Part shown: one piece after another, positions 143-29,568 of the stretch
Layout of the letters: each line of letters starts with the position of its first letter
Position numbering within the stretch: position 1 is the first letter of the stretch
Source of the DNA: Candidatus Acidiferrales bacterium
Lineage (GTDB): Bacteria > Acidobacteriota > Terriglobia > Acidiferrales > UBA7541
NCBI GenBank assembly: GCA_050747305.1
Contig: JBOGNS010000009.1
Coordinates: 1 to 61,265, forward strand
Direction of reading: 5' to 3'
Length of the DNA stretch: 61,265 nt
Program-made: the position numbers and the translations under genes
The notes under the pieces: generated by a model
Database searches by the model: none
What the model was told of the DNA's origin: nothing
What the model saw: only the letters and a program-made list of their open reading frames with translations

Positions 143-1570
143 CTATTTACGTTTCGCGGTGGCGAAGTGAGTGCTCTGGCCGAAGTAAACTTCGGCGGCT
201 TCCATCACCGTTTCCGAGAGCGTGGGATGCGGGTGGATGGTGAGCCTCAGGTCGCCGGCGACGCAATCCATCTCGATGGCCAGCACGCCCTCGGCGATCA
301 GCTCGCCCGCGCCGTAGCCCACGATGCCGACGCCGAGCACGCGCTCGGTGGCGGGATCAATCAGCAGCTTGGTGGCGCCGTCGTTGCGATCGTTGGCGGT
401 GGCGCGGCCGGAAGCGCCCCACGGGAAACGCGCCACTTTGTATTCGCGGTTCTGCTCCTTGGCCTGCGTTTCGGTGAGGCCGGCCCAGGCGATCTCCGGG
501 TCTGTGAAAACGACGGCGGGAATGGCGCGCGGCTCAAACACTGTCTTGTGCCCGCCAATGGCTTCCACTGCGACGCGCGCTTCGTGCGACGCCTTGTGCG
601 CCAGCATCGGCTCGCCGGCCACGTCGCCGATGGCGAAGATGGTCGGCTCAGCGGTGCGGCGCTGGCCGTCGGTTTCGATGAAGCCTTTCTTGTTTACTTT
701 CACTTTCGTTTTATCGAGGCCGGGGATTTTCGAGTTGGGCGTGCGGCCCACGGAAACCAGCACCGCGTCGAAAGTTTTCTCTTTCTCCTTTACGTCGCCG
801 TCGAACTTCACGCGGATGCCATCCTTAGCTTCCTTCATCTCCGCGACTTTGGTGTTGAGCAGGATGCCTTCCCAATTGGCTTCGAGGCGTTTGGCGAGCA
901 CGTTGACCAGGTCGCGGTCGGCGCCGGGCAGCAGGCCGGGCATCATCTCCACCACGGTGACCTTTGAGCCGAGTGCGTGGTACACCGTGCCCAGTTCCAG
1001 CCCGATGTAGCCGCCGCCAATCACCAGCAGCGACTTGGGCACGCTGGGCAAATCGAGCGCGGACGTGGAGTCCCACACCCGGTCGCTATCGACCGACAGG
1101 CTGGGAATCTTCGTCGGCTTCGAGCCGGTGGCGAGTATGATTGCGTCGAAGGTGAGCTTCTCTTCCCCGCCGGATTTTTTCGCCACCTTCAGCGTGCGGC
1201 CGTCCACGATTTCGGCGAGTCCCTGAATGTACTTCACGTTTCGTTGCTTGGAGAGCTGGCCGAGGCCGCCGGTATTCTTCTTCACCACATTTTCTTTGAA
1301 CGCGCGCAGCTTATCGAGATTGATCTTCGGCTTGCCGAACTCGATGCCCCATTGCGCGGCGTGCTGCGCTTCAGTAATCAGCACCGCGACGTGCAGCAGC
1401 GCCTTCGAGGGGATGCACCCGCGATAAAGACACACGCCGCCGGGATTCGCTTCCTCGTCAATCAGTGTGGCGGTCATGCCGAGGTCCGCGGCGTAAAATG
1501 CCGCCGCGTAACCGCCCGGGCCACCGCCTACCACCGCGATGTTCTTGTTGTAGTCGCCGCTCATCCGCAC
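143..1570 (-). CDS. lpdA: dihydrolipoyl dehydrogenase (E3)
   Basis: 475-aa ORF. FAD fold VVGGGPGGYAAAF, redox-active disulfide GGVCLYRGCIPSK and C-terminal HPHPTLSE. Lies downstream of the E1/E2 genes on the same strand. Confidence 0.95.
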   Translation of the reverse strand: MRMSGDYNKNIAVVGGGPGGYAAAFYAADLGMTATLIDEEANPGGVCLYRGCIPSKALLHVAVLITEAQHAAQWGIEFGKPKINLDKLRAFKENVVKKNTGGLGQLSKQRNVKYIQGLAEIVDGRTLKVAKKSGGEEKLTFDAIILATGSKPTKIPSLSVDSDRVWDSTSALDLPSVPKSLLVIGGGYIGLELGTVYHALGSKVTVVEMMPGLLPGADRDLVNVLAKRLEANWEGILLNTKVAEMKEAKDGIRVKFDGDVKEKEKTFDAVLVSVGRTPNSKIPGLDKTKVKVNKKGFIETDGQRRTAEPTIFAIGDVAGEPMLAHKASHEARVAVEAIGGHKTVFEPRAIPAVVFTDPEIAWAGLTETQAKEQNREYKVARFPWGASGRATANDRNDGATKLLIDPATERVLGVGIVGYGAGELIAEGVLAIEMDCVAGDLRLTIHPHPTLSETVMEAAEVYFGQSTHFATAKRK

Positions 1571-1582
1571 GCTCCGTCACAC

Positions 1583-1683
1583 GTAGGGGCGCCCCTTTGG
1601 CCGCCCTATTCGCGGCCGCCCTAGCCTGTGGCCGCCCTGGTCCATGCGCGAAAGAATGGGCGCACACAGAGGCGCGCCCCTAC
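1583..1683. repeat. GTAGG...CCTAC-bounded REP/MITE-like element (about 101 bp)
   Basis: GTAGGGGCGCCCC at 1583 and GGCGCGCCCCTAC ending at 1683 are inverted copies. Fills the aceF-lpdA intergenic space. Confidence 0.7.
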
Positions 1684-1706
1684 CAAGAAAACGAATCGGT
1701 CGCTGC

Positions 1707-3092
1707 TCACCCTTCGAACGACAGCAAGAACGGCTGCTCGAATGCCTCGACGACCCAGCGCAGGAAACGCGCCGCATCCGCGCCGTCAATTATGCGATGG
1801 TCATAGGAAAGCGAAAGCGGCAGCAGCGAGCGCGGCTCGAAATGGCCGTCCACGTGCACCGGCTCGGTGCGCGCGCGCGAAATTCCCAGGATGGCCACCT
1901 CCGGCGAATTCACGATAGGTGAAAAGTGCGTGCCGCCGATGCCACCCAGATTGGTGATGGTGAAGACGCCGCCTTGCATCTCTTCCAGCGTAAGCTTGCC
2001 GGCGCGCGACTTCTCGGCGAGTTTGCCGAGCTCGATGGAAAGCTCGAGAATGTTTTTGTGGTCGGCGTCGCGAATCACCGGCACCAGCAGGCCGCGCTCG
2101 GTATCAACGGCCACACCGATGTGGCAATACTTCTTGTAGATGATTTCTTCGCGCGCCAGATCGATGCTGGAGGCGAACTGCGGGAAAACTTTCAGCGCCG
2201 AGGCGGCCACCTTCAGCGCGATGGCCGTCATGGTGAGCTTGCCACCGGCCTGCTCGACTTTGGGGCCGAGCTTCTTCTGCATTTCGCTCAGGATGCTGAC
2301 GTCGGCCTTGTCGTGGTTGGTGACGTGCGGAATCGTCTGCCACGCATGGCTCAGGTGACGCGCGGTGGCGCGGCGAATGCCGGTCATGCCTTTGCGTTCG
2401 ACCGTGCCCCACTTTGAAAAATCCGGGAGCGACGGCGCCGCCACAGCCGGCCCTCCCGTAGCGCGGGTCTGCATCGCGGCTTTGACGTGGGCCTTGACGT
2501 CTTCGATGGAGATGCGCCCGCGCTCGCCGCTGCCGCGCACCGCGTGAACATCCACGCCGAGTTCGCGCGCCAGGCGCCGCACGGAAGGAGCGGCAGGAGC
2601 GGGCGCGCCTTTGGCGGGCTCAGGCTCCGCTTCGGCCAGCGGCTTCGCCACGGCTGGCTCACGCGACGGCTTTTCTTCTTTCGCCGGTTGCGCCTCGGCA
2701 ACTTCTGACTTGGCCGGCGTTTCGGCTTCTTGCGCTTCCGGCGCGACGGCGGCGGCCTTCGCTTCCTTCTTTTCTGCCGGTCGCCGTTCTTCTTTTTCTT
2801 CCTTCTTCTTTGCCGTTTCCGGCTTGGCTTCTTTTTTCTCGGCGGGAGCGGCGGCGCCGTCGTCAATGGTGAGAATCAATTCTCCGACTTTAACCTTCTG
2901 ACCCTGCTTGACGTGCACCTGCTTCACGGTGCCGGCGGCAGGAGAAGGCACTTCGATGGTGGCCTTCTCGGTTTCTAGCTCGACCACGGCCTGGTCTTTG
3001 GCGATGGAGTCACCCGGGGCAACGAGGATTTTGGTGACGTCGCCGGATTCGACGTTTTCGCCTAGCTCGGGGAGTTTGAACTCTGTCGGCAC
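1707..3092 (-). CDS. aceF: dihydrolipoamide acetyltransferase (E2) of pyruvate dehydrogenase complex
   Basis: 461 aa. One lipoyl domain (VELETEKATIEVPSP), an Ala/Pro/Lys/Glu-rich linker, an E3-binding segment PSVRRLARELGVD and the catalytic SYDHRIIDGA motif. Confidence 0.93.
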   Translation of the reverse strand: MPTEFKLPELGENVESGDVTKILVAPGDSIAKDQAVVELETEKATIEVPSPAAGTVKQVHVKQGQKVKVGELILTIDDGAAAPAEKKEAKPETAKKKEEKEERRPAEKKEAKAAAVAPEAQEAETPAKSEVAEAQPAKEEKPSREPAVAKPLAEAEPEPAKGAPAPAAPSVRRLARELGVDVHAVRGSGERGRISIEDVKAHVKAAMQTRATGGPAVAAPSLPDFSKWGTVERKGMTGIRRATARHLSHAWQTIPHVTNHDKADVSILSEMQKKLGPKVEQAGGKLTMTAIALKVAASALKVFPQFASSIDLAREEIIYKKYCHIGVAVDTERGLLVPVIRDADHKNILELSIELGKLAEKSRAGKLTLEEMQGGVFTITNLGGIGGTHFSPIVNSPEVAILGISRARTEPVHVDGHFEPRSLLPLSLSYDHRIIDGADAARFLRWVVEAFEQPFLLSFEG

Positions 3093-3114
3093 GATTCGTA
3101 GCCTTTTGAGAGAA

Positions 3115-3171
3115 AGTGGCTAGTGGTTTCAGCTGGACTCTTACTAGCCAACTAGTTAGACACTAGCCACT
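3115..3171. repeat. 11-bp perfect inverted repeat (AGTGGCTAGTG / CACTAGCCACT) between aceE and aceF
   Basis: Arms at 3115-3125 and 3161-3171 are exact reverse complements. ACTAG-rich sequence lies between them. Confidence 0.6.
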
Positions 3172-3176
3172 ATCCC

Positions 3177-5909
3177 CTATGAAGTCATCGGGTTCAGCTT
3201 GTCTGGATTGATTCCCAACTCTTTGATCGCTTTCTCGGCCACGGAAGTCTCAATCTGCTTCTCTCGCGCCAGCTCGGCAAGCGTGGCCAGCGCAACAAAC
3301 TTCGCATCCACCTCGAAAAAGTCGCGCAGCGAGGCGCGGCCTTCACTGCGGCCAAAGCCGTCGGTGCCGAGGCACGCCACGCGCCGCGGGCACCACTTGG
3401 CAATCAGATTCGGCAGCGCCTTCATGTAATCCGACGCGGCCACCAGCACACCCGGCGCGTCGGCGAGGCATTCGGTGACGTAGGGCGTGCGCGCGGGCTT
3501 GCCGGGATGCAGCATGTTCCAGCGCTCCACGTCCAGCCCATCGCGGTACAACTGCTTGTAACTGGTCACGCTCCACACGTCGGCGGCAACGCCATATTTC
3601 CCGAGCATCTCCTGCGCCACGAGCACTTCGTGCAGGATCGCACCGGAGCCGAAGAGTTGCGCGCGCAACTTGCTCCCGCCGTTCTGCGCCGCGCGCACGC
3701 GATACATCCCGCGCAGAATGCCCTCGCGCGCGCCATCGGGCATGGCCGGATGCGCGTAAGGCTCGTTCATCACCGTGATGTAGTAGAAGATGCTCTCCTG
3801 CTCTTTGTACATGCGGCGGATACCGTCTTCGATAATCACCGCGATTTCGTAGGCGAACGCTGGATCGTATGTCCGCACGTTGGGCACGGTGAGCGCCAGC
3901 ACGTGGCTGTGGCCGTCCTGATGCTGGAGTCCTTCGCCGGCCAGCGTAGTGCGTCCTGAGGTGCCGCCGAGCATGAAGCCGCGGCAGCGCGTGTCTGCGG
4001 CCGCCCAAATCAGATCACCGATGCGCTGGAAGCCAAACATCGAATAAAAAATGAAAAACGGAATGGTGTTGATGCCATGCGTGGCCGGTGCGGAACCGGC
4101 GGCGATGAACGACGACATCGAGCCGGCTTCCGTGATGCCTTCCTCTAGAATTTGTCCGTCCGTGGATTCTTTGTAGTAGAGCAGCGTGTCCATGTCCACC
4201 GGCTCGTAGAGCTGGCCGACGTGCGAATAGATGCCGACCTGGCGGAACAGCGACTCCATGCCGAAGGTGCGCGCTTCGTCGGGCACGATGGGCACGACGA
4301 GCTTGCCGATTTCCTTGTCGCGCAGCAGCTTGGCCAGCATGCGAACGAAAGCCATGGTGGTGGCGATCTCGCGGCCATCGGTGCCCTTGTGGAACTCATC
4401 GAACAGGTCGCCGAACTCCGCTTTGATGGGCTTGGAGCGCTGCTTGCGAGCCGGCACGAAACCGCCAAGCTCTTCGCGGCGCGCGCGGATGTATTGGACT
4501 TCGGGACTGTCCTCCGGCGGGCGATAGAACGGGGCCTTGGCGACATCTTGGTCATCCACCGGGATGCCGAAACGAGCGCGGAACTCGCGAAGCTCATCCT
4601 CGTTCAGCTTCTTCTGCTGGTGAGTGATGTTCCTACCTTCACCGCTCTCGCCCAGGCCGTAGCCCTTGATGGTGCGCGCGAGAATCACGGTGGGTGCGCC
4701 TTTGTGCTCCACGGCCGCGCGGAAGGCAGCATAAACTTTTTTCGGGTCGTGGCCGCCGAGGCGCATGCGGCGGAGTTGTTCGTCGGAGAGATGCTCCACC
4801 ATCTTGAGCAGCCGCTCGTCGTGCCCGAAAAACTTTTCGCGAAAGTAAGCGCCGGACTCCACCACCAGCTTCTGATACTCACCGTCAACGATCTCGCCCA
4901 TGCGCTGCACCAGCGCACCGTCCGTGTCCTTCTCGATGAGCGGATCCCAATCGCTGCCCCACAGCACTTTGATCACATTCCAGCCGGCGCCGCGGAAGCT
5001 GGCTTCCAGCTCCTGAATGATCTGGCCATTGCCGCGCACCGGACCATCGAGCCGCTGGAGGTTGCAGTTGACAACGAAGATCAGGTTGTCGAGTTTCTCG
5101 CGTGAGGCCAGCGTGATGGCGCCGAGTGATTCCGGCTCATCGGTCTCGCCGTCGCCGAGGAAAGCCCACACTTTGGCGTCGCTGTGCGGTTTGAGGCCGC
5201 GGTCTTCGAGGTAGCGATTGAACCGCGCCTGGTAGATGGCCATGATGGGGCTCAAGCCCATCGAGACCGTGGGGAACTCCCAGAACTCGGGCATCAGCCA
5301 CGGGTGCGGATAGGAGGATAGACCGCCGCCGGGACGCAACTCGCGGCGGAAATTCTCCAGTTGCTCGACGGAGAGCCGGCCCTCGAGGAATGCGCGGGCG
5401 TATATTCCCGGCGCGGCGTGACCTTGAAAATAAATCGTGTCGCCTTCGAAGTTTTCGCTACGCGCGCGAAAGAAATGGTTGAAGCCGATTTCGTAGAGCG
5501 TCGCTGCCGACGCATAGGTGGAAATGTGGCCGCCGATGCCGCTTTCCTGCTTATTGGCCCGCACCACCATGGCCAGCGCGTTCCAGCGCACTAGGCTCTT
5601 GATGCGCCGCTCGATTTCCTGGCTTCCGGGAAAAGGCGGCTGATGCTCAGTGTTGATAGTGTTGACGTAGGGAGTATTGGCGGTGAACGGGATTTGAACG
5701 CCGGCGAGCTTGGCGTGGACACGCAGGTGCTCGAGGAGGACGCGCGCGCGCTCGGGGCCGCCATCCTGAAGGACGTAATCGAGCGACTCCCGCCACTCGC
5801 GTAACTCGGTCTTTTCCAGTTGGCTCAGCTCGCGCGGCAGCTCTCTCTTTTTTGCCGCCGCCTCTACGGACGCAGCCTCCTTCGTCCGTTCCACCACTGT
5901 ACTCGCCAT
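3177..5909 (-). CDS. aceE: pyruvate dehydrogenase E1 component, homodimeric type
   Basis: The ORF runs to 6035. The ATG at 5909 (MASTVVERTKE...) is preferred because the upstream extension crosses a REP hairpin. ThDP motif FLGDGETDEPESLG; about 910 aa, typical of AceE. Confidence 0.9.
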   Translation of the reverse strand: MASTVVERTKEAASVEAAAKKRELPRELSQLEKTELREWRESLDYVLQDGGPERARVLLEHLRVHAKLAGVQIPFTANTPYVNTINTEHQPPFPGSQEIERRIKSLVRWNALAMVVRANKQESGIGGHISTYASAATLYEIGFNHFFRARSENFEGDTIYFQGHAAPGIYARAFLEGRLSVEQLENFRRELRPGGGLSSYPHPWLMPEFWEFPTVSMGLSPIMAIYQARFNRYLEDRGLKPHSDAKVWAFLGDGETDEPESLGAITLASREKLDNLIFVVNCNLQRLDGPVRGNGQIIQELEASFRGAGWNVIKVLWGSDWDPLIEKDTDGALVQRMGEIVDGEYQKLVVESGAYFREKFFGHDERLLKMVEHLSDEQLRRMRLGGHDPKKVYAAFRAAVEHKGAPTVILARTIKGYGLGESGEGRNITHQQKKLNEDELREFRARFGIPVDDQDVAKAPFYRPPEDSPEVQYIRARREELGGFVPARKQRSKPIKAEFGDLFDEFHKGTDGREIATTMAFVRMLAKLLRDKEIGKLVVPIVPDEARTFGMESLFRQVGIYSHVGQLYEPVDMDTLLYYKESTDGQILEEGITEAGSMSSFIAAGSAPATHGINTIPFFIFYSMFGFQRIGDLIWAAADTRCRGFMLGGTSGRTTLAGEGLQHQDGHSHVLALTVPNVRTYDPAFAYEIAVIIEDGIRRMYKEQESIFYYITVMNEPYAHPAMPDGAREGILRGMYRVRAAQNGGSKLRAQLFGSGAILHEVLVAQEMLGKYGVAADVWSVTSYKQLYRDGLDVERWNMLHPGKPARTPYVTECLADAPGVLVAASDYMKALPNLIAKWCPRRVACLGTDGFGRSEGRASLRDFFEVDAKFVALATLAELAREKQIETSVAEKAIKELGINPDKLNPMTS

Positions 5910-5996
5910 ACGGCGCTCCTCACTCTCTCGAATCCAACCATTATATGCGTTGCTGACCAATTTCCAAAGAAACGTAGACAGGCGCCGCCATGAAAA

Positions 5997-6025
5997 CAAA
6001 GCGGCAGCTTTGCTGCCGCACTCCA
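5997..6025. repeat. REP hairpin of the GGAGTGCGGC family (CAAAGCGGCAGC-TTT-GCTGCCGCACTCCA)
   Basis: Stem GCGGCAGC/GCTGCCGC read directly. Related copies at 17255, 48870, 49368 and 51461. Confidence 0.65.
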
Positions 6026-6069
6026 CATAAACCATCTGCTACACTCGCGTATTTCGACGGAGAGAATCA

Positions 6070-8891: not shown

Positions 8892-11756
8892 GTGAAACGC
8901 ATTCGGCAGACCGCCGTAGTGTTGCTTTTGCTGACGGGGGTCTGCGTGTATGCGCTTCCATCCGCCACGCTGTTCGTCGCCGGCGTCTTCTACATTCATC
9001 TCCTGGTGGGCGTTCTCTTCCTGCTGGTCTTGCTGCCGACCCTGGCGCGGGTGTTCCGCGGATGCAATACAGAAGGGCGTATCGGCTGGGCGCTGATTGC
9101 GTTCGGGGGCTTGCTAGGCGTCGCGCTGATGTTTACCGGCGGCACGCGGCCCTTCACTGCCTTGCTCTACTCGCACATCGGGGCCAGCCTGCTCGGTGTG
9201 GTGTTCCTGGCCGCGAAATGGCTGGGAGATGCGCCGCGCGCGGCTGCGGTGCGATTAGCGCCGCACGGCCCGCTGCTGCGGTTCGGTTCGGTGCTGCTCG
9301 TGGCCGCCGTGCTTTCAGCCGCTGCTTGGTGGGTGCGTGTCCCGCTGTGGCAGCAGGCGTACCGCATTACCAATCCCGAGTTGGCCCCAGCTTCCATGGA
9401 AGGCGAAGGCGACGGGCCTAGGGGCCCGTTCTTCCCCAGTTCGGCGCAGACAGCGCACGGCGGCACCATCCCAGCCAAGTACTTCATGCAGTCGCAGACC
9501 TGCGAGCGCTGCCATGCGGACATCTATCACCAATGGTCCGGCTCGATGCACCGCTTCTCTTCCTTCAATAATCAGTGGTACCGCAAGAGCATAGAGTATA
9601 TGCAGGAAGTGAATGGCGTGCAGTCGTCGAAGTGGTGCGCCGGCTGTCATGACCCGGCCATGCTCTTCACCGGCCTGTTCGAGAAGCCCGCCGTAGAAAA
9701 CCTGAGCAGGCCGGAGGCGCATGCCGGCCTCGGCTGCGTGATGTGCCACTCCATGGTGCAGGTGAAGAGCACCATGGGCCAGGGCGACTTCGGGCTGGAA
9801 TACCCGGAGATCAATGAACTCGCCACAAGCGAGAATCCGCTGGTGCGCTTTGTACACGACTTCTTCGTGAAAGTGAACCCCGAGCCGCACCGCCGCACGT
9901 TTATGAAGCCGTTCGTGCGCCAGCAGACCGCGGAGTTCTGCTCGTCCTGCCACAAGGTGCACCTCGATGTGCCGGTCAATAATTACCGCTGGATTCGCGG
10001 CTTCAACGATTACGACAACTGGCAGGCCAGCGGCATCTCCGGGCAGGGCGCGCGCTCCTTCTACTATCCCGCGCAGCCGCAGAAATGCGTGGATTGCCAC
10101 ATGCCCCTTGTGCCCTCCGAGGACTTCGGCAACGTGGATGGCATGGTGCACTCGCATCGCTTCCCCGCCGCCAACACCGCTGTGCCATTCGCCAATCAGG
10201 ATCAGGCGCAGTTCGAGGCCACGGAAAAATTCCTGAAGGATGGGCAACTTACGGTGGACATCTTCGCCGTGTCGCCCGCGCGCGAAATCACCGGAGGCGG
10301 CGAAGCCCGGCCCAGCCAATTGATGAGCACCTTCGCCGTGGGCGAGGAGGCTGAGCTTTCCGTCACGCCGGGCGGCGTGGAAGCGGCGCCGGTAACCGCG
10401 CCGCTCAATCGTGTGGGCGCGACGGTGCGGCGCGGCGATGAAGTGCGTGTGGATGTGGTGGTGCGCACGCGCAAGGTCGGTCACTTCTTCCCCGGCGGCA
10501 CGGTGGATGCCTTCGACGTGTGGGTCGAGCTGCAAGCTACCGACGAAAAAGGTCAAGTCGTTTTCTGGAGCGGCGCGGTCGAAGACGGCGGCAAGGGCCC
10601 GGTGGAAAAAGGCGCGCACTTTTATCGCGCGCTGCTGGTGGACGCGCACGGCAACGTAATCAACAAGCGCAATGCCTTCGCCGCGCGCGCCGTCGTCTAT
10701 GTGCGGATGATCCCGCCCGGCGCGGCGGACACCGTCCACTACCGTATGCGCATCCCTGAAAACGCCGGCGAGAAAATCACGCTGAAGGCCAAGCTGCACT
10801 ATCGCAAATTCATGTGGTGGAACACGCAGTTCGCCTTCGCGGGGATTCCCGATCCATTGCAGCCGCAGGGTGAAGTCACCAAAGATTATGACGACCGCAA
10901 GTTCCGTTTCACCGGCGACACCTCGGGCGTCTCTGGCCAGCTCAAGCACATTCCGAATCTGCCCATCATCACGCTGGCGTCGGATGAAGTTGCGCTCAAC
11001 GTAGCGCCGCGCAGCGCGCCTGTGCCCGAGCCGAGAGTAGTTTTGCAAGCGGACGACTGGACGCGCTGGAACGATTACGGCATCGGCCTGCTGCTGCAAG
11101 GCGATCTGAAGGGCGCGGAAGCCGCGTTTGCGAAGATCACCGAGATAGACTCGAAGAATGCCGATGGCTGGAACAATATCGGCCGCGTGCGCGTCGCTGA
11201 AGGCAACCTGGAGGGCGCGCGCGAAGTGTTGCAGAAAGCTCTGGAACTGAAACCGGAACTCGCCAGCGCGCACTATTTCTACGCGCGCGTCCTGAAGGCG
11301 GAAGGCGATTACGAGAAGGCCGTCGAGCACTTGCAGCGCGCGCTCGATCAGTATCCGCGCGATCGCGTGGTGCGCAACGAGCTGGGCCGCGTGCGTTTCC
11401 TGCAAAAGCGCTACCGCGACGCCGTCAGTGAGTTCAGGAAGACTCTGGCCATTGATCCCGAAGACTTGCCGGCGCACTACAACCTCATGCTCAGCTACAA
11501 CGGGCTCGGCGACACCGAGCGTGCGCTCGCGCACCAACAGCGCTACCTGCGCTTCAAGGCCGACGAGGCTTCGCAGGCCATCACCGGCCCCTATCGCCGC
11601 CTGAATCCCGAAGACAATAACGAGCGGCAAGCCATCCACGAGCACGCCTCACTGCCCCAGGTCAAAATCCGCGCCGCGCTCGAAGCCTTCGCCGCCGAGC
11701 AGCGCGCCCGCGCGCAGCGCCCGCCGGTGGCCGGTCATTCAGGCGGCGGCCCGTGA
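8892..11756 (+). CDS. membrane-anchored multihaem c-type cytochrome with C-terminal TPR repeats
   Basis: 954 aa with a GTG start. About 4 N-terminal hydrophobic helices. Five CxxCH motifs (CERCH, CAGCH, CVMCH, CSSCH, CVDCH). C-terminal TPR-like repeats (GWNNIGRVRVAEGNLEGAREVLQKALELKP...). Confidence 0.8.
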   Translation: MKRIRQTAVVLLLLTGVCVYALPSATLFVAGVFYIHLLVGVLFLLVLLPTLARVFRGCNTEGRIGWALIAFGGLLGVALMFTGGTRPFTALLYSHIGASLLGVVFLAAKWLGDAPRAAAVRLAPHGPLLRFGSVLLVAAVLSAAAWWVRVPLWQQAYRITNPELAPASMEGEGDGPRGPFFPSSAQTAHGGTIPAKYFMQSQTCERCHADIYHQWSGSMHRFSSFNNQWYRKSIEYMQEVNGVQSSKWCAGCHDPAMLFTGLFEKPAVENLSRPEAHAGLGCVMCHSMVQVKSTMGQGDFGLEYPEINELATSENPLVRFVHDFFVKVNPEPHRRTFMKPFVRQQTAEFCSSCHKVHLDVPVNNYRWIRGFNDYDNWQASGISGQGARSFYYPAQPQKCVDCHMPLVPSEDFGNVDGMVHSHRFPAANTAVPFANQDQAQFEATEKFLKDGQLTVDIFAVSPAREITGGGEARPSQLMSTFAVGEEAELSVTPGGVEAAPVTAPLNRVGATVRRGDEVRVDVVVRTRKVGHFFPGGTVDAFDVWVELQATDEKGQVVFWSGAVEDGGKGPVEKGAHFYRALLVDAHGNVINKRNAFAARAVVYVRMIPPGAADTVHYRMRIPENAGEKITLKAKLHYRKFMWWNTQFAFAGIPDPLQPQGEVTKDYDDRKFRFTGDTSGVSGQLKHIPNLPIITLASDEVALNVAPRSAPVPEPRVVLQADDWTRWNDYGIGLLLQGDLKGAEAAFAKITEIDSKNADGWNNIGRVRVAEGNLEGAREVLQKALELKPELASAHYFYARVLKAEGDYEKAVEHLQRALDQYPRDRVVRNELGRVRFLQKRYRDAVSEFRKTLAIDPEDLPAHYNLMLSYNGLGDTERALAHQQRYLRFKADEASQAITGPYRRLNPEDNNERQAIHEHASLPQVKIRAALEAFAAEQRARAQRPPVAGHSGGGP

Positions 11757-11790: not shown

Positions 11791-12429
11791 ATGACCTGGA
11801 TCAAAACCATACCCCTGCCCGAAGCGAGCGAAGCGCTAGTCAAGGCAATTACTTCGCAGCGCGATCTTTATCCGGTGGAGTACGCAGCACCGGTGCAGCC
11901 CACGCCGGACGGCGTAGCCGGCATCGTTGCCTCGCACAGCCTCATCCCGCAGGCGCTCTATCACGCATTTTCCACGTTCGGTGCGCTGATGTCGCCGGAG
12001 CTTCCGCTTACGCGACGGCAACATGAGATGATCACTACCGTCGTCTCGGCGCAGAACCGCTGCCATTATTGAATTACGTCTCACGCAGAGTTTCTGCGTC
12101 GCGTCACTCTGGATGAGGAATTTGTGGAGCAACTGAAGCGAGATTACACCCAGGCTGAGCTTTTGGAGCCGGATCGCGCCATGCTCGATTATGTCGTGAC
12201 CATTACGAAGGACGCCACACAGGTAGGCCCGCGCGATCACCAGCGCCTGCGCGCCGCGGGCTTCGACGACACCGGCATCCTGCAAATCACACTGATCGCC
12301 TCGTGGTTCAACTACATCAACCGCGTTGCCGACGCACTCGGCGTTGGCCGCGAGCCCGCCGATGCGACTGCTTCTGCATCCGCGTCCGTTGCCGTATCTG
12401 CGTCCAACCCAGCCGGAGGCACTCCGTGA
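11791..12429 (+). CDS. AhpD/carboxymuconolactone-decarboxylase-like peroxidase-related protein with an in-frame TGA at 12070-12072 (candidate selenocysteine; alternatively a nonsense pseudogene)
   Basis: ORFs 11791-12072 and 12124-12429 share one frame and are separated only by this single TGA. Reading through gives ...[10 protein letters not shown][TGA][11 protein letters not shown]..., so the TGA sits where the second Cys of the family CxxC...H motif is expected. Confidence 0.55.
12076..12104 (+). promoter_or_regulatory. SECIS-like stem-loop immediately 3' of the in-frame UGA
   Basis: ACGCAG(12083-88)-AGUUU-CUGCGU(12094-99) forms a perfect 6-bp stem with a GU-containing loop, starting 10 nt after the UGA. 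It can be extended by ACG(12076-78)/CGU(12102-04) across an internal loop. Confidence 0.4.
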
Positions 12430-14186
12430 CCAGACCCCGTAGGGGCGGGCCCCAGTGCCCGCCCCTTTTTCTTGCAACATTCGTAGGGGCGCTGCTAGCT
12501 GCGCCGTCTTTCTTGCTATGCGCCGCGCCGCAGTCGAAGCCGGCGAAGGATTCGGCCAAGCCAGCGCCACTGATAGCGCCAACCCGCATCGCCTTCACCG
12601 ATATCACCGCGAAAGCCGGCATCCGCTTCACGCACAACACCGGCGGCTTCGGCAAAAAGTTTCTGCCGGAAACCATGGGCGCCGGCGTGGCCTTCATTGA
12701 CTACGACGGCGACGGCTGGCAAGACATTTTTTTCGTCAACTCCAGCGACTTCCCCGGCCACAAGCGGCGCACCACCGCGCCCGCTCTCTACCGCAACAAT
12801 CGCAACGGCACCTTCACCGACGTAACGCGCGCCAGCGGCCTAGCCATCGAAATCTACGGGCTGGGCGTCGCCGTCGGCGATTACGACAACGACGGTGACG
12901 ACGACATTTACCTCACCGCGCTTGGGCAAAACCGCCTCGTCCGCAACAACGGCAAGGGCGCCTTCACCGATGCGACCACCGCGGCGGGCCTCGCGGGACA
13001 CAACGACTTCAGCTCCTCCGCTGCATGGGTGGATTACGACAAAGATGGCCACCTTGATCTCTTCGTCGCCAATTACGTGCAGTGGACGCCGGAAACCGAT
13101 CTTTTCTGCACGCTGGATGGCACGCGCAAATCGTACTGCACGCCGGAGTCGTACAAAGGCGCGACAGCGCGGCTGTGGCGCAATCGCGGCGACGGCACAT
13201 TTGAAGACGTGACGCGCGCCGCCGCATTGGAAGATGCCACGTCAAAAGGGCTGGGCGTGGCGGTGCTCGACTCCAACATGGACGGCTGGCCAGACCTGCT
13301 GCTGGTCAACGACACCGAGCCCAACAAGCTCTACATCAGCGACGGCAAGGGAAAGTTCACCGAGCGCGGCGTGCTCGCGGGCATCGGCTTCAGCGAGAAC
13401 GGCGTGGCGCGCGCCGGGATGGGCACTGATGCCGCCGATTACGACCGCAGCGGCTACCCCAGCATTCTCATCAGCAATTTTTCCAATCAGATGCTCGCGC
13501 TCTACCACAACGAAGGCAACGGACTTTTTGTGGATGAAGCGCCGCGCTCGGAAGTCGGCCGGCGCAGCTTGCTCTCGCTGGGCTTCGCCGCATTTTTTTA
13601 CGACTACGATCTCGACGGCTGGCTGGATATTTTTGTCGCCAATGGGCACATCGAAGATGAGATCGAGCGCATCCAGCAGCGCGTTACTTACGCGCAGCCG
13701 CCGCACGTGTTTCGCAATACCGGCGGCGGCAAGTTCGTCGAAACTACCGAATCGCTTGGCGCGGCATTCAACAAAAGGCGCGTAGCGCGCGGCGCCGCTT
13801 ACGGTGACATCGACAACGACGGCGACCTCGATCTGGTGATGACCACCAACGGCGGCCCGGCCGTGCTCTTCCGCAACGATGGCGTGAGCAACCGCAGTGT
13901 GCGCATCAAGCTCGCCGGCACAAAGTCGAATCGTAATGGCCTCGGCGCAATGGTGACAGCTACCGTCGGCGGCGCTTCGCAAACCCAAATGCTGCGCAGC
14001 GGCTCCAGCTATCTTTCCGCCAGCGAACTGCTTCTCACCTTCGGCCTCGGCTCCGCTGCGCACGCCGATTCCATCGAGATTCGCTGGCCCTCCGGCCAAA
14101 TCGACAAGCTCGAGAAAGTCGCCGCCGGCCAAACCATCACCGTGCAGGAAGGCAAAGGCCAAATCTCCGCTACACCGCACAGGTAG
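12426..14186 (+). CDS. CRTAC1-like FG-GAP/VCBS repeat protein with ASPIC/UnbV C-terminal domain
   Basis: Seven D-x-D-x-DG-type FG-GAP calcium motifs ([41 protein letters not shown]...). C-terminal [15 protein letters not shown]...[10 protein letters not shown]. Start placed at the GTG at 12426, which overlaps the upstream stop (GTGA) and gives a signal-like N-terminus; this start is uncertain. Confidence 0.8.
12439..12505. repeat. two GTAGGGGCG-type REP hairpins
   Basis: GTAGGGGCGGGCCCCAGTGCCCGCCCC (12439-12465) and GTAGGGGCGCTGCTAGCTGCGCC (12483-12505). Both lie within the predicted signal-peptide coding region. Confidence 0.7.
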
Positions 14187-18157: not shown

Positions 18158-18279
18158 CTGGCACCGCGCGCAGAATAATTCCTTAACCTTTCGCAGCGCA
18201 GGCAACCCGCCTTCATCGCGCTGCAACCAACGAATCAAATCTCGGTCGGATGCTGTTCATCCGCTTCAGGGGTGGGGCG

Positions 18280-21200
18280 ATGCGACAGAAGTGTACATTT
18301 GCGTCTCTTCTCGTAGTGTTTTTGTTTCAGGCAGGATCTTTCGCCACGGCGCGCCTGCGCGTGGATGAGTCTGCGACCACTATCCGCTTCGGCGCAACCG
18401 GCGCGGAAAATCAACTTCAACTCGTGGTCGAGAATCCCGGCAGCCCGCTGCACGTGCGCCTGCAACTCGAATGGCTCGACACGGACGACCGCGTGCGCGG
18501 TCGTATCGAACGTGACGAGCGCTTGCGCGCGGGGCGCAACCGGCTCGTAGTTCGCTTCCCGTTCGACTTCGCGGCGCTGAGGCAAGACGATCGGCGCGAA
18601 TTTCTCTGGTATCGCGTGCAGTATCGAATCGAGCCGGCCTCAGCGGAGCAAAGCTTCGAGCCTGTAATCGGTGTGCTGACCGTCGGGCAAATCAGCCCGG
18701 CGGCATTTGTCTTGCGGCTCGCGCATCCGGCTGGAGTCGCAGCGGGCACCCCGCTGCGAGTCCGTGTACGGTCACTGCACCCGCTCACCGAGAAAGGGGT
18801 TGCCGGCGTTCAACTCAACGGCATCGCAACGTACGAAAACGAAGACTTCGATGCGGTGAAAGTCAGCGCTGGCTCTCGCACCGACAACGACGGCCATGCC
18901 GTGCTGGAATTTCCCCTCCCTGCAAACTTTCACTCGGAAGTGGATATCGAAATCACCGGCCGCCACGGCGGATTCGAGGATGTGGCGGAGTCCACGGCGT
19001 ATCCGGCGGGCCTGCCGCGAATCCTGCTGACCACGGACAAACCCATCTACCAGCCCGGGCAAACGCTGCGCGTGCGCCTGCTGGCTTTCGACGGCGCAGA
19101 ACGCGCGATGTCCGGCCAAGTCGTCGGCGTGCGCGTCGAGGATCCTGAAGGCACGCTGGTGTACCGCGCCGAGCTCACCACTTCGCGGTTTGGTGTGGCC
19201 AGCAGCGAATGGATGGTTCCCGAGAGCCTGCGGCTGGGCGAATACTCCATCCAAGCCTCGCTCGAGGACAGTCCCTTTGAAGATGAAGTGGGAGCTCGCA
19301 AGCTTGTGCGAATCAGCCGCTACGAGTTGCCCGCTTTTACCGTGACCGTGGAGCCTAACCGGCAATTCTATCTGCGCGGGCAGGATGCCGAGGTCCGCGT
19401 GCGCGCCGACTATCTCTTCGGCAAGCCGGTCACGCAAGGACGCGCGCGCATCGTGCGCGAGGAAGGCCGCCACTGGAACTACCGCAAACAGAAATGGGAA
19501 TTCACGGAATCGGAAAAGTATGAAGGGGAAGCTGCGACTGGCGAGTTTCGCGTGACGATTCCTCTGGCCCAGCATCACGACGACTTGAGCGATCACCAGC
19601 GGTTCGACGACATCGAGTACGCCGCCTATCTCACCGATGCCTCCACCGGCCGCACCGAGCAGCGGCGGTTTGCCCTCCGCGTCACGCGCGATCCGATCCA
19701 CATCTACGTGATTGATTCCAACTATGCGGCCGAAGGCGTCCCGCAACGCTTCTATGTTTCCACGTCTTACGCCGACGGCATGCCGGCCTCGTGCGACGTA
19801 GTGGTGCAGCAGGCGCTGCCGGCACAGACTGCGGCCGGCAAGGAGGATGCGCCGGTGTATCGCGACGTCCGCAAGGTGCGCACGAATCGATACGGGCTGG
19901 TGCGTGTGGATGACTTGCTGCTCGCGTGGGACAAGGAGGGCGGCAACAACCTGCTGCTTCATGCCCGCGATGGAAAAGGCGCAAGCGGCAGTCAATCTCA
20001 TCACATCTGGAAATCACCATTTCCGGTGCTGCGCGTTGAGACCAATAAGGCGCTCTACCGCGCCGGCGAGCCCATCGAGATTCGCCTGAAATCGGATGTA
20101 GCAAATGCCACGGCCTTCGTAGATGTAACCGTCGACAACGCAACCGTTACATCGCGGCGAGTGCGGCTCAAGAACGGCCGCGCGTGGCTGTCGCTGCCCT
20201 GGCGATCCGAGTACTCCGGGGAAGTGACGCTGTTTACTTACTTCCTCGGCCAGAATCGCGGCTACTCCTACGAGCGTTCGGCTGCCGCCAGCCACACCGT
20301 GCTCTTCCCTGCCCCGCGCGCGGTTCGACTCGATGTGCGCTGGAGCCAGCCAGAATACCAGCCGGGCGAAAAAGCGCGCGCCGATTTCCGTGTGCGTTTG
20401 CCGGGCGGGCGCATGGCCCCGGCGGCACTCGGGCTTGTGGTCTTCGATAAGGCGGTCGAGGAGCGCGTACGCACCGATACCGATTTTGGCGGGCGCGCGC
20501 CACGCTTCGGGTTCTGCGCGGATTATGAGTCGTGGATCAATGAGCAGGCGGTGGCGGGCATGCGCCGCGCCGATCTCGACGCCCTGGATATGACGCAACC
20601 CTTGCCCGACGGCCTGGATCTGGTGGCGGAGGTTCTGCTTCGCGATGCGCCGGGCTGGCTACGGTTTGACGAAGGCCGCACTTCGACAGACGCAAGCGAG
20701 GCCTACGGCGATTTGGCGCGCCGCCGCGTGCACCACATTCGCGAGGCGCTTGCCGACCATTACAAAGCCATGACCGATTTTCCCGAGGATGCAACTGCAC
20801 TCCGGCGAATCTTGAACGAAGAACATGTGGATTTCGACGCCGCACTCGATCCATGGGGCATGGCCTTCGAGCCGCAGTTCCGTTTCCAACGGGAAAAGAC
20901 GGTGCTCGATTTGCAGAGCCGCGGCCCGGATAAGCAACTCGGCACCGACGATGATTTCAGCGCGCTCTCCACCGGATGGCCATACTTCTTGCCGATCGGC
21001 ACGCGGATTACGGAAGCAGTCGGCGACCATGTGCGGAAGTCAGGCCGGTTTGTGCGCGACTTCAAGACACTGGCATGGCTGATGGGCGCTCGCGGCGTGG
21101 ATCTCACCACTCTCCGCGACCCGTGGGGCTCGCCCTACCGCTTCGAGTTTGATGTGCAGCGCGAGCGCTACACCATCACCGTGGTCAGTGCAGGGCCGGA

Positions 21201-24200
21201 TCGCAAATTTGCAAACCGCGAGCGGACCTGGGGCGACGACTTCGCGCTGTGGACCGTGGCCACCGATTACTTCGCGTCCCTGCGCGAACCCGTGGAGGCA
21301 GCGCTCGCAACTTTTGTGGCGCGCCGCGGACGCTTTTTCGAGAGTGAGCAGGAGGCCGCGCAGGCGCTGGCGACTGCACAGTTTGGCCCCGAGAAGCTGC
21401 TCGATCCGTGGGGCCGCCCCTACTATTTCGAGCTCACCCGGATGGCGCGCTACAGCGACACAGCGTCTGTGCGCTCTTACGCCGACGTGAGCGGGCGCCC
21501 AACTGTACGGCGCACCATCGTTCCCGTTACACAGGTGATGAATTGGATTAACCTGCGCAGCATGGGCCCCGATGGCACGCGCGGCGGCGACGATTTCGAT
21601 GTAGCCAGCTTTCGCCGCCTCGCGCTGGAAAGCGGCGGTACGTTTGAAATGCGCAAGCTTGCCACAAGCCCGCTGCTGCCGGGAAGCACCGGCGCAATCG
21701 TCGGCATCATCACGGATGTCAGTGGCGCAGTCGTCCCGGAAACACAGGTGACAGCGATGACTAACTCCAGGGAAAATACGTTGGAGACTGCAACCAACGA
21801 GGCGGGCGAGTATTTACTGAGCAATCTTCCGCCGGGCTTCTATCGCGTTGAGTTTAAGGCGGCTGGATTCAGGCTCTCGGTTGTCGCGGATGTTCCCGTC
21901 GGCTCGTCGAGTATCACGCGGCTCAACGCAACGTTGGACATCGGTGATGTAACCGCGACCGTCGAGGTGCAGGCCGCAGTGCTCCCACTTCAAACTACTA
22001 ACGCAACCATCGCGGATTACAAGGCGCCGATGAGCACCCGCCCGCGGCCCCCGGGTCCAATCGCCACGCCGCGGTTGCGCGAATACTTTCCCGAAACGCT
22101 CTACTGGCAGCCCGAAATCATCACCGATGCGCAAGGCCGCGCGCGCATCGAGTTCCCACTGGCCGACAACATCACCACATGGCGCATCTCCGCGCTGGCG
22201 TCCACCGAAGACGGCAAGCTCGGGTCGTTTGAAGGCGAGATACGCGCCTTCCAGCCCTTCTTCGTCGAGCACGACCCGCCGCGCGCACTCACCGCAGGCG
22301 ACCAAATCGCCCTACCCGTGGTGCTGCGCAACTATCATGACAAAGCGCAAGCCGTGGACCTCGAGATGCACTCTGCGCCGTGGTTTTCGTTGTTGGGCGA
22401 GGCGCGCAAGCACGTCGACGTGCCCGCCGGCGATTCAGCGCGCGAAATTTTCTCCTTCCGCGCGGATTCTCCGGTGAAGCAAGGCCAGCAGCGCATCACC
22501 GCAGCCGGCCGCAGCGCCGGCGACGCGGTGGAAAAGGCGGTACTGGTACGCCCGGACGGCAACGAAATCGTTATCACAGCCGGCCAGGTGTTCGGCGCCA
22601 CCGCGCAATTTACACTGGAGATTCCACGCCACGCGATTGACGGCTCGACGGAAGCGCAACTCAAGCTCTATCCGAACCTGATGGCTCACGTTGCGGAAAG
22701 CGTGGAGGGAATTCTGCAGCGGCCCTACGGCTGCGCGGAGCAAACCATCTCGTCCACCTATCCCAGCTTGTTGGTTGTGCGTTACGCCAAAGAAGGCGCG
22801 GAGGCGCCGCTGGTGAATCGCGCGCGGCGCTACCTGCGCCTCGGCTATGAACGGCTGCTTGGCTACCGCGCGGAAGGCGGCGGCTTCAGCTATTGGGGCA
22901 AGGGCGAAGCCGACGCGGCGCTCACCGCCTATGCGCTGCGCTTCCTGCGCGATGCCTCCATCGTGATCAGCGTGGATGAGGAGCTCATCCGCTCCACCGG
23001 TGCATGGCTCGCGCAGCAGTTGCAAGCCGACGGGAGTTGGCGCTGGCACAATTGGCATGGCGAAGAGCATCCGCGGCGTTCGCTGATGCAAACGGCATAC
23101 ATCGCGCGTGTGCTCGCAGGGGTCGCCACGACCGCTAACGCGAAGTCCGCAGCGCGCTCGCCCGAGATGCAAGCGCTCGATCGCGCACTCGACTACCTGG
23201 CCGTCCGCGTAGCAGAAATGGACGAGCCGTACGCGCTCGCGTCGTTCGCCCTCGCCGCGGCCGATGCTGGCCGCGAACATCACGCCGCGCAAGCCGTAGC
23301 GCGGCTGCGCACCATGGCGCGTGATGAGGGCGACGGGTCGTATTGGGTGCTGGAAACCAACTCGCCGTTCTATGGCTGGGGGCTTGCCGGGCGCGTGGAA
23401 ACCACGGCGCTGGTGATGCAGGCGCTGCTGCGGGCAGGAACCGTGCTCGACGACGCGCTGGTGAACCGCGGCACGCTTTTCCTGCTGCGCGCGAAAGACC
23501 GTTACGGCGTGTGGCACTCGACGCAGGCCACCGTGCAAGTGCTCGATACGTTGCGGGCCATCATTTCGCACTCGCAGCCGGCCGCAGGCGGTGAGCAGCG
23601 CGCCGAAGTGCTGGTAGATGGCACCGTCGCCGCCACGCTGGCGCTTCCCTCTCCCACGCAGCTCACTGGCCCTGTGGCGATTCATCTCGGCTCGCAACTC
23701 GGCGCAGGCGCGCATCGCATTGAGATTCGGCGGCCGGCCGGCTCGACTGCCGCCAGTGCACAACTTGTGGCCAGTTATTACGTGCCGTGGCGCGAAGTCG
23801 AAAATCGGTCCGGCGCGTTACGTCTCGATGTGCGCTTCGATAAAACCGACGCGCGCGAAGGCGAAGAAGTCCGCTGCAAAGTCGTTGCCGAGCGCATCGG
23901 GCATCGCGGCTACGGCATGATGATCGCGGAGATAGGCCTGCCGCCGGGCGCGGATGTGGATCGCGCTTCGCTGGAACGCGCCAAGGAAAATTCCCGCTGG
24001 TCCCTGAATCACTACGACGTGCTGCCGGATCGCGTGGTGGTTTACCTGTGGCCGCGCGCGGGCGGCATGGAGTTCGAGTTCGTGTTCAAGCCGCGCTTCG
24101 GCATGACGGCCAAAACCGCGCCATCCCAACTCTACGATTACTACAACCCGGAAGCGCGCGTCGTGCTGGCGCCGGCGCTCTTCCGCGTGGCCAGCGGCAC

Positions 24201-24225
24201 ACCGCAGCTTCGCGCCGCCCAGTAG
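18280..24225 (+). CDS. alpha-2-macroglobulin/thioester-containing protein family, very large secreted protein
   Basis: ATG at 18280 preceded by GGGGTGGGG; signal-like MRQKCTFASLLVVFLFQAGSFATA. MG-domain hallmarks (RYELPAFTVTVEP, YFPETLYWQPEI...NITTWR). Thioester motif PYGCAEQT (Cys at 22732-34, Gln at 22741-43). Also has a CarboxypepD_reg-like insert and three GspG-like modules. Confidence 0.85.
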   Translation: MRQKCTFASLLVVFLFQAGSFATARLRVDESATTIRFGATGAENQLQLVVENPGSPLHVRLQLEWLDTDDRVRGRIERDERLRAGRNRLVVRFPFDFAALRQDDRREFLWYRVQYRIEPASAEQSFEPVIGVLTVGQISPAAFVLRLAHPAGVAAGTPLRVRVRSLHPLTEKGVAGVQLNGIATYENEDFDAVKVSAGSRTDNDGHAVLEFPLPANFHSEVDIEITGRHGGFEDVAESTAYPAGLPRILLTTDKPIYQPGQTLRVRLLAFDGAERAMSGQVVGVRVEDPEGTLVYRAELTTSRFGVASSEWMVPESLRLGEYSIQASLEDSPFEDEVGARKLVRISRYELPAFTVTVEPNRQFYLRGQDAEVRVRADYLFGKPVTQGRARIVREEGRHWNYRKQKWEFTESEKYEGEAATGEFRVTIPLAQHHDDLSDHQRFDDIEYAAYLTDASTGRTEQRRFALRVTRDPIHIYVIDSNYAAEGVPQRFYVSTSYADGMPASCDVVVQQALPAQTAAGKEDAPVYRDVRKVRTNRYGLVRVDDLLLAWDKEGGNNLLLHARDGKGASGSQSHHIWKSPFPVLRVETNKALYRAGEPIEIRLKSDVANATAFVDVTVDNATVTSRRVRLKNGRAWLSLPWRSEYSGEVTLFTYFLGQNRGYSYERSAAASHTVLFPAPRAVRLDVRWSQPEYQPGEKARADFRVRLPGGRMAPAALGLVVFDKAVEERVRTDTDFGGRAPRFGFCADYESWINEQAVAGMRRADLDALDMTQPLPDGLDLVAEVLLRDAPGWLRFDEGRTSTDASEAYGDLARRRVHHIREALADHYKAMTDFPEDATALRRILNEEHVDFDAALDPWGMAFEPQFRFQREKTVLDLQSRGPDKQLGTDDDFSALSTGWPYFLPIGTRITEAVGDHVRKSGRFVRDFKTLAWLMGARGVDLTTLRDPWGSPYRFEFDVQRERYTITVVSAGPDRKFANRERTWGDDFALWTVATDYFASLREPVEAALATFVARRGRFFESEQEAAQALATAQFGPEKLLDPWGRPYYFELTRMARYSDTASVRSYADVSGRPTVRRTIVPVTQVMNWINLRSMGPDGTRGGDDFDVASFRRLALESGGTFEMRKLATSPLLPGSTGAIVGIITDVSGAVVPETQVTAMTNSRENTLETATNEAGEYLLSNLPPGFYRVEFKAAGFRLSVVADVPVGSSSITRLNATLDIGDVTATVEVQAAVLPLQTTNATIADYKAPMSTRPRPPGPIATPRLREYFPETLYWQPEIITDAQGRARIEFPLADNITTWRISALASTEDGKLGSFEGEIRAFQPFFVEHDPPRALTAGDQIALPVVLRNYHDKAQAVDLEMHSAPWFSLLGEARKHVDVPAGDSAREIFSFRADSPVKQGQQRITAAGRSAGDAVEKAVLVRPDGNEIVITAGQVFGATAQFTLEIPRHAIDGSTEAQLKLYPNLMAHVAESVEGILQRPYGCAEQTISSTYPSLLVVRYAKEGAEAPLVNRARRYLRLGYERLLGYRAEGGGFSYWGKGEADAALTAYALRFLRDASIVISVDEELIRSTGAWLAQQLQADGSWRWHNWHGEEHPRRSLMQTAYIARVLAGVATTANAKSAARSPEMQALDRALDYLAVRVAEMDEPYALASFALAAADAGREHHAAQAVARLRTMARDEGDGSYWVLETNSPFYGWGLAGRVETTALVMQALLRAGTVLDDALVNRGTLFLLRAKDRYGVWHSTQATVQVLDTLRAIISHSQPAAGGEQRAEVLVDGTVAATLALPSPTQLTGPVAIHLGSQLGAGAHRIEIRRPAGSTAASAQLVASYYVPWREVENRSGALRLDVRFDKTDAREGEEVRCKVVAERIGHRGYGMMIAEIGLPPGADVDRASLERAKENSRWSLNHYDVLPDRVVVYLWPRAGGMEFEFVFKPRFGMTAKTAPSQLYDYYNPEARVVLAPALFRVASGTPQLRAAQ

Positions 24226-28121: not shown

Positions 28122-29516
<1,395 letters not shown>

Positions 29517-29568
29517 TACATCTCTCCTCTGGTGCGATCACTTGCCGCTGGGCTTTAGCGCGCAGCAT

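Follow-up and report, generated by a model that had tools for sequence, protein, structure and literature searches.

A UGA-containing AhpD-like gene of a Candidatus Acidiferrales bacterium as a probable further member of the CxxU selenoprotein family

An AhpD-like gene with an in-frame UGA codon is located on the plus strand, at positions 11791-12429, of a 61,265-nucleotide stretch of DNA from a Candidatus Acidiferrales bacterium (assembly GCA_050747305.1, contig JBOGNS010000009.1, positions 1-61,265; hereafter, the window). Our analysis indicated that this region is, with high probability, a single functional gene, in which the UGA at 12070-12072 is read as selenocysteine (Sec) and the hairpin immediately downstream serves as the selenocysteine insertion sequence (SECIS). 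As had been pointed out in an earlier, sequence-only reading of this DNA, two open reading frames (ORFs), 11791-12072 (93 residues) and 12124-12429 (101 residues), were found to lie in a common frame, the sole interruption of which is the TGA at 12070-12072. Reading through this codon gives the peptide V-S-A-Q-N-R-C91-H-Y-U94-I-T-S-H98-A-E-F-L-R within a product of 212 residues, whose N-terminus, MTWIKT, agrees with those of the homologues. The features of the gene on which the following argument draws are as follows.

Positions 11791-12429, plus strand: complete gene for the putative AhpD-like (TIGR01926, peroxidase-related) selenoprotein, 212 codons, with codon 94 assigned to Sec and TGA at 12427-12429 as the true stop.
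Positions 12025-12027, plus strand: codon of Glu79, 12 residues before Cys91, invariant in two alignments (A1 and A3), with the spacing described in PMC3141380.
Positions 12061-12072, plus strand: predicted redox motif C91-H-Y-U94 (TGC CAT TAT TGA), with Cys91 and Tyr93 conserved in at least 90%.
Positions 12070-12072, plus strand: in-frame UGA, codon 94, assigned as probable selenocysteine on the basis of TGA in the orthologues and of the Cys column in the homologues.
Positions 12082-12099, plus strand: near-invariant 18-nucleotide block CACGCAGAGTTTCTGCGT, codons H98-R103, containing the candidate SECIS hairpin, as defined by conservation and by the RNAalifold consensus.

The joined product, scored against hidden Markov models with the U replaced by C, matched the NCBIfam family TIGR01926 "peroxidase-related enzyme" with 110.4 bits (cut-off 81.8) and the Pfam CMD domain PF02627 with 35.2 bits (cut-off 23), which corroborated the AhpD/CMD assignment originally made from the sequence alone. 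The family profile further retrieved the solved structures 2PFX, 3C1L, 2OYO, 6K40 (AhpD of D. radiodurans), and 2PRR at E-values of 1e-30 to 1e-23, all of which carry Cys at the U column within the motif N-x-C-x-Y-C-x-x-[S/A]-H. Alignment with 46 full-length Cys homologues and with 2PFX, 3C1L, and 2OYO placed the UGA column exactly at the second Cys of CxxCxxxH, just where the sequence-only reading had put it. In alignments A1 and A3, the Glu, His, and second-Cys columns showed little or no variation, and the spacing of Glu79, Cys91, Tyr93, U94, and His98 matched that of the AhpD proton relay, which consists of Glu118/Cys130/His132/Cys133/His137 in M. tuberculosis AhpD and of Glu36/Cys48/Tyr50/Cys51/His55 in PA0269 (PMC3141380). 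The motif His, His98, itself sits inside the hairpin block. The fold was judged on an AlphaFold model of a homologue, P0013, that is 71% identical to the window protein. This model was all-helical, with ten helices and a predicted local distance difference test score of 80, and it gave template modeling (TM) scores of 0.68-0.71 to 2PFX, 6K40, 2PRR, 3C1L, and 2OYO; on this modeled homologue, the window product is predicted to have the all-alpha AhpD-like fold.

Evidence for the recoding of codon 94 came from the conservation of the stop codon itself. A scan of GTDB with one genome per species yielded more than 595 relatives, and in the best 80 loci, which were analyzed, the codon was TGA without exception (80/80). 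These loci belonged to Pyrinomonadaceae, Blastocatellia, Vicinamibacterales, Terriglobales, and other Acidobacteriota, as well as to Gemmatimonadota, with a few from bins labeled Planctomycetota or Patescibacteria. Likewise, the best 80 loci from a scan of JGI metagenomes comprised 79 TGA forms and one Cys form, even though the scan had been seeded with Cys forms. With the window and a further JGI contig (L002) added, the independent sequences that have TGA at this column numbered 161 and came from several phyla, most of the TGA-bearing relatives being Acidobacteriota or Gemmatimonadota. The Sec forms constituted a coherent clade, in which the nearest neighbor was likewise a Sec form in 69 of 71 cases, and the residue following Sec was Ile, at a position where the Cys forms have Ser or Thr.

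Several members nested in the Sec clade lack the UGA and have Trp, Leu, Cys (C-I-E-S-H), or Ser at the column (contigs L001 and L003; proteins P0013, P0080, and P0052). The two of them seen as DNA, TGG in the ENA contig L001 (940-1010) and TTA (Leu) in L003 (2583-2650), are one-base changes from UGA, and the 18-nucleotide hairpin is intact in both. These members look like secondary losses of Sec, assembly error being the alternative.

A first alternative is that the codon is a genuine stop. In such a case, the TGA would be a recent nonsense mutation in a pseudogene, a sequencing error, or the boundary of a split gene encoding a 93-residue and a 101-residue protein, the second from the GTG at 12124. 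A standard gene caller does report two ORFs, and a 71-nucleotide stretch around the TGA folded no better than its shuffles (z = -0.19). In contrast, the codon alignment of 78 genes contained exactly one internal stop in every gene, and the entropy at the three codon positions was 0.53/0.35/1.36 bits upstream of the UGA versus 0.49/0.36/1.36 bits downstream, which implies that translation extends through the second half, on which purifying selection acts as it does on the first. This coding-type variation continues through codons 95-111, ahead of the GTG at 12124, and a split gene would place the CxxC partner and the motif His on separate polypeptides. In combination with the recurrence of the same TGA in the 161 sequences across several phyla, these data make a genuine stop highly improbable; pseudogene, sequencing error, and split gene were all rejected on the conservation of both the UGA and the coding signal.

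A second alternative is that UGA is a sense codon in this organism, as in genetic code tables 4 (Trp) or 25 (Gly). This was raised by the protein homologues: the search returned 797 of them, and in the best 120, the residue at the column was tallied as Cys in 46 and as "W" in 71. In L002 (558-632), however, the codon beneath such a "W" proved to be TGA, so that the "W" is an artifact of the translation table with which UGA was rendered as Trp, and a real TGG was found at the column in one contig only, L001. Moreover, TGA is the stop of 15 of the 32 Pfam-supported genes of the window, the AhpD-like gene itself included, and is the commonest true stop there. A reassigned code is thereby excluded, and we consider its probability to be practically nil. 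A search of the window for other genes split by TGA provided no credible second selenoprotein candidate.

With the UGA of the AhpD-like gene regarded as a recoded codon, we assessed the RNA structure downstream of it. The hairpin consists of the 5' arm ACGCAG (12083-12088), the loop AGTTT (12089-12093), and the 3' arm CTGCGT (12094-12099), and is separated from the UGA by a 10-nucleotide spacer (12073-12082), which confirms the previously described 17-nucleotide perfect stem-loop with GU in its loop, ten nucleotides past the UGA. It thus spans +11 to +27 from the UGA, with the loop AGUUU 16 nucleotides after it, and forms a perfect stem of 6 base pairs, or of 7 base pairs with a GUU triloop in the minimum free energy (MFE) fold. 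Within the single window sequence, the significance of the hairpin is only modest. The 17-mer folded with z = -4.46, and the 41 nucleotides from the UGA gave z = -2.07 (7 of 200 shuffles as good). Since the hairpin is only moderately unusual in one sequence, the case for it was built by comparison. The window has a single copy of the 18-mer, against an expectation of 0.07 when up to 3 mismatches are allowed, and the hairpin motif has no further copy in the remainder of the window or across 1.6 Mb of related loci.

The comparison was carried out with 159 TGA-bearing sequences, 155 of them unique over 81 nucleotides. The block CACGCAGAGUUUCUGCGU was exact in 149 of the 159. The synonymous entropy of the hairpin codons 98-103 (H-A-E-F-L-R) was 0, 0.1, 0, 0.1, 0, and 0.2 bits, respectively, whereas the flanking codons showed 0.6-2.1 bits, even at the fully conserved S97, R104, and T106. 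RNAalifold on the 155 unique sequences returned the apical hairpin as the sole consensus structure, and it was present in the MFE fold of 149 of them. A conserved lower SECIS helix was also sought in this way, and the 4-base-pair lower stem of the window MFE fold was not conserved. The sole change within a stem pair was A-U to G-U; the other variants had U-to-C in the loop, or a substitution at the final base of the 3' arm, which shortens the stem to 5 base pairs. In three distinct Cys-form DNAs used as controls (L084/85, L086, and L088), the synonymous sites of the hairpin block differed, and the stem was broken or weakened. Judged from these alignments, the hairpin is not a matter of chance, and the synonymous freeze across about 160 orthologues is what a SECIS located inside a coding sequence would be expected to show.

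Several observations weigh against the assignment of this hairpin as a SECIS and of codon 94 as Sec, and they are collected here. Around the site, a search of Rfam at permissive E-values yielded noise and no family match. The stem showed no compensatory covariation in the 155 sequences, because it is so invariant. Because HAEFLR is conserved at the protein level as well, the RNA argument depends on the synonymous sites and on only the three Cys-form DNAs. The decoding machinery was likewise not encountered in the DNA searched: ARAGORN and Rfam detected a tRNA-Glu as the only tRNA in the window and no tRNA-Sec, Pfam scans of 40 window ORFs revealed no SelA, SelB, or SelD, ARAGORN found no tRNA-Sec within 10 kb of the gene in 60 related loci, and a tblastn search of the window and all loci with an E. 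coli SelD query gave no match.

The absence of Sec machinery from the window and of tRNA-Sec from the flanks of the 60 related loci would also fit a third alternative, in which the UGA is decoded by other means, namely by a selC* tRNA(Cys) delivered by SelB at the same hairpin, or by an acidobacterial allo-tRNA acting as an opal suppressor, with Cys or Ser at position 94. Acidobacteria do possess 8/4 and 9/3 allo-tRNAs that are possible nonsense suppressors, and selC* tRNA(Cys) species mimicking tRNA(Sec) have been reported in other phyla, namely Firmicutes, Thermodesulfobacteria, Nitrospirae, and Proteobacteria, but not in Acidobacteria (PMC5389517). A general opal suppressor would exert no selection for a conserved local hairpin and is at odds with TGA as the commonest stop of the window; moreover, a Cys product would need just TGC or TGT, as in the Cys clade. 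We therefore consider such decoding improbable, although less so than a genuine stop. Taken as a whole, the family-wide signature strongly suggested that Sec is the residue inserted at codon 94 in this organism.

On this basis, the following mechanism can be proposed. Once the UGA occupies the ribosomal A site, the complex SelB.GTP.Sec-tRNA(Sec) would bind the hairpin ACGCAG-AGUUU-CUGCGU, Sec would be inserted at codon 94, and translation would proceed to the TGA at 12427-12429; the dependence on SelB and tRNA-Sec is what we infer from the family-wide signature. The redox center of the product would be C91-x-x-U94, with Glu79, Tyr93, and His98 as putative counterparts of the AhpD proton relay. 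Of the two motif Cys residues of M. tuberculosis AhpD, Cys130 is partly buried, and Cys133, the second, is exposed and cross-links to AhpC (PMC6626918). By analogy with this exposed second Cys, Sec94 is most likely the attacking nucleophile and Cys91 its resolving partner; in this scheme, the attack would come from the selenolate of the exposed second position, and Cys91 would close a selenenylsulfide. The sequence-only reading had spoken of the UGA as replacing the resolving Cys, of which the column position is right and the label is probably wrong, the second Cys being the exposed attacker in the M. tuberculosis enzyme (PMC6626918). These roles of individual residues are likewise ones that we infer from the characterized homologues, and a peroxiredoxin, or a different partner of disulfide or hydroperoxide type, may be the physiological substrate.

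The genes and other elements that surround the AhpD-like gene are as follows.

Positions 8892-11756, plus strand: upstream gene for a membrane multihaem cytochrome of 954 residues with five CxxCH motifs, a cytochrome c554 domain, and TPR repeats, with counterparts in L077 and L147.
Positions 12426-14186, plus strand: downstream gene for a secreted FG-GAP/UnbV_ASPIC (CRTAC1-type) protein, whose GTG at 12426 overlaps the stop of the AhpD-like gene (GTGA).
Positions 12441-12474, plus strand: terminator-like GC-rich hairpin (10 base pairs; 12441-12466) followed by the T-run TTTTTCTT, z = -2.84, 12 nucleotides past the AhpD-like stop.

The domain content of the two adjoining genes agreed with the multihaem cytochrome and the CRTAC1-like protein that had been recognized as neighbors at the outset. 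The same order, multihaem-TPR cytochrome, AhpD-like (Sec), and FG-GAP/UnbV, was also found in the acidobacterial contigs L077 (7089-12265) and L147 (3-3554), and this recurrence makes an operon plausible. As for the proposal that the AhpD-like gene is translationally coupled to the CRTAC1-like gene, the GTGA overlap at 12426-12429 on which it was founded is present, the GTG at 12426 shares the frame of the FG-GAP/UnbV ORF, and no other start provides the downstream protein with a signal peptide. The coupling itself is plausible, though clouded by the strong terminator-like hairpin with its T-run just after the stop. This hairpin falls in the first 16 codons of the FG-GAP/UnbV gene if translation starts at GTG 12426, and it may serve as an attenuator or partial terminator between both genes. 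In L077 and L147, the downstream gene begins 12-20 nucleotides past the stop, behind a Shine-Dalgarno sequence.

Other arrangements were observed among the relatives. The cytochrome gene adjoins the UnbV gene in L042, L037, and L066, with the AhpD-like gene elsewhere nearby, and the gene of a Cys-form homologue (P0071) likewise precedes a 993-residue multihaem-TPR gene. Across the 80 GTDB loci, the commonest neighbor was an APC amino-acid permease directly upstream on the same strand (31/80), often overlapping (e.g., L023 and L005). In at least 14, an outer-membrane protein with CarboxypepD_reg and a TonB-dependent-like beta-barrel is encoded two genes upstream, and in 9, a 715-residue protein with no Pfam match is encoded downstream. 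Two genes past a Cys-form AhpD-like homologue (L084:2490-2567), we found a gene of the T4_deiodinase family, which is listed among bacterial selenoproteins. The Pfam scans of 40 ORFs in the window identified no ahpC/Prx gene. A pyruvate dehydrogenase cluster encoding E1, E2 (lipoyl), and E3 (dihydrolipoamide dehydrogenase) is located at 143-6035 on the minus strand, 6-12 kb upstream. In M. tuberculosis, E2-bound lipoamide and Lpd serve as the reductants of AhpD; the proximity of the cluster to the AhpD-like gene is probably a coincidence. Farther away, the window contains a bacterial alpha-2-macroglobulin gene of 1991 residues at 18250-24225 and, at 28122-30027 on the minus strand, a gene for cytochrome c552 nitrite reductase (NrfA-like) with an adjoining NapC/NirT (NrfH-like) gene.

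These surroundings, together with the invariance of the hairpin, invite a more far-reaching interpretation, which we regard as doubtful: that the bulge-less hairpin represents a distinct, sequence-read class of SECIS, spread horizontally with its gene, and that the protein has a role other than AhpC recycling. The 17-nucleotide hairpin, invariant in Acidobacteriota, Gemmatimonadota, and some Planctomycetota-labeled bins, could be recognized by its sequence rather than by its shape. Similarly, the AhpD-like Sec protein could process an imported or envelope-derived substrate, in view of the APC permease, outer-membrane protein, cytochrome, and FG-GAP/UnbV neighbors.

For annotation, the results imply that the locus should be entered as one 212-residue selenoprotein instead of two fragments, and the gene marks this acidobacterium-like organism as a likely user of selenocysteine. 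The Sec form dominates the loci retrieved, with 80/80 of the best GTDB species loci and 79/80 of the best metagenome loci. Public protein collections often list the Sec form at full length and with "W" as an active-site residue, which would mislead motif- or structure-based analyses. The gene introduces no new principle, inasmuch as the family and its CxxU motif were already known, as was decoding directed by a SECIS. It almost certainly encodes selenocysteine and is, in our view, a well-supported addition to a family of selenoproteins that has been known since 2005, a correct but ordinary case. The modest additions are the near-invariant SECIS block in the sampled soil sequences and the observation that protein databases mistranslate the Sec codon.

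Among proteins of known structure, the closest solved relatives are 2PFX, 3C1L, 2OYO, and 2PRR, structural-genomics entries described as "uncharacterized peroxidase-related proteins," and 6K40, which belong to the same length class of about 190 residues and differ in having Cys in place of Sec, at 25-33% identity. With M. tuberculosis AhpD (1KNC/1GU9) and PA0269, the gene product shares the all-helical AhpD/CMD fold and the pattern Glu-12-Cys-x-[His/Tyr]-Cys-3-His, whereas the second Cys is replaced by Sec and no ahpC adjoins the gene in the window; to M. tuberculosis AhpD, the similarity is remote (Foldseek E-value of about 0.1 and TM score of about 0.5 for the P0013 model).

The likeness of the hairpin to the minimal SECIS of E. 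coli fdhF, which had been part of the initial proposal, holds in part. The fdhF sequence used for the comparison (UGA, 11 nucleotides, and a 17-nucleotide hairpin) was borne out by 5419 of 5426 E. coli genomes, and according to Liu et al. in 1998, a 17-nucleotide element at 11 nucleotides from the UGA is reportedly required in fdhF. Size and spacing are in good agreement, with a 17-nucleotide hairpin in both and a spacer of 10 nucleotides here versus 11 nucleotides in fdhF, and the GU in the loop and the GCAG...CUGC core are common to both. In contrast, the bulged U and the loop sequence of fdhF are not reproduced: the present hairpin has a perfect stem of 6-7 base pairs with no bulged U, its loop is AGUUU or GUU and not GGUC, and it has no conserved lower helix. 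By analogy, the hairpin may thus work like the fdhF SECIS while standing outside that sequence class.

The nearest known system is the AhpD-like CxxU selenoprotein family, and the remark in the sequence-only reading that such proteins had been reported before is borne out by the literature. They were described as 27 sequences of COG2128 from the Sargasso Sea (PMC1088965), then in the selenoproteome of the Global Ocean Sampling as AhpD-like 1 and 2, both CxxU, the second form being commoner in non-marine samples (PMC2398784), and are entered in a 2026 review as "AhpD-like protein, TIGR01926, CxxU" (PMC13188914); selenoproteins were also already known in Acidobacteria (PMC1794560). The present gene shares with the published family (COG2128/TIGR01926) the same HMM family, Sec at the second motif position, and widespread Cys homologues, and a SECIS just downstream with G in the apical loop is common to both (PMC1088965, PMC2398784, PMC13188914). 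Its likeness to the published representative MCB9421940.1 is one of family and motif and does not imply the same subclade. The published family was drawn from marine plankton, whereas the clade described herein belongs to soil Acidobacteriota and Gemmatimonadota and carries the near-invariant 18-nucleotide block in about 160 sequences.

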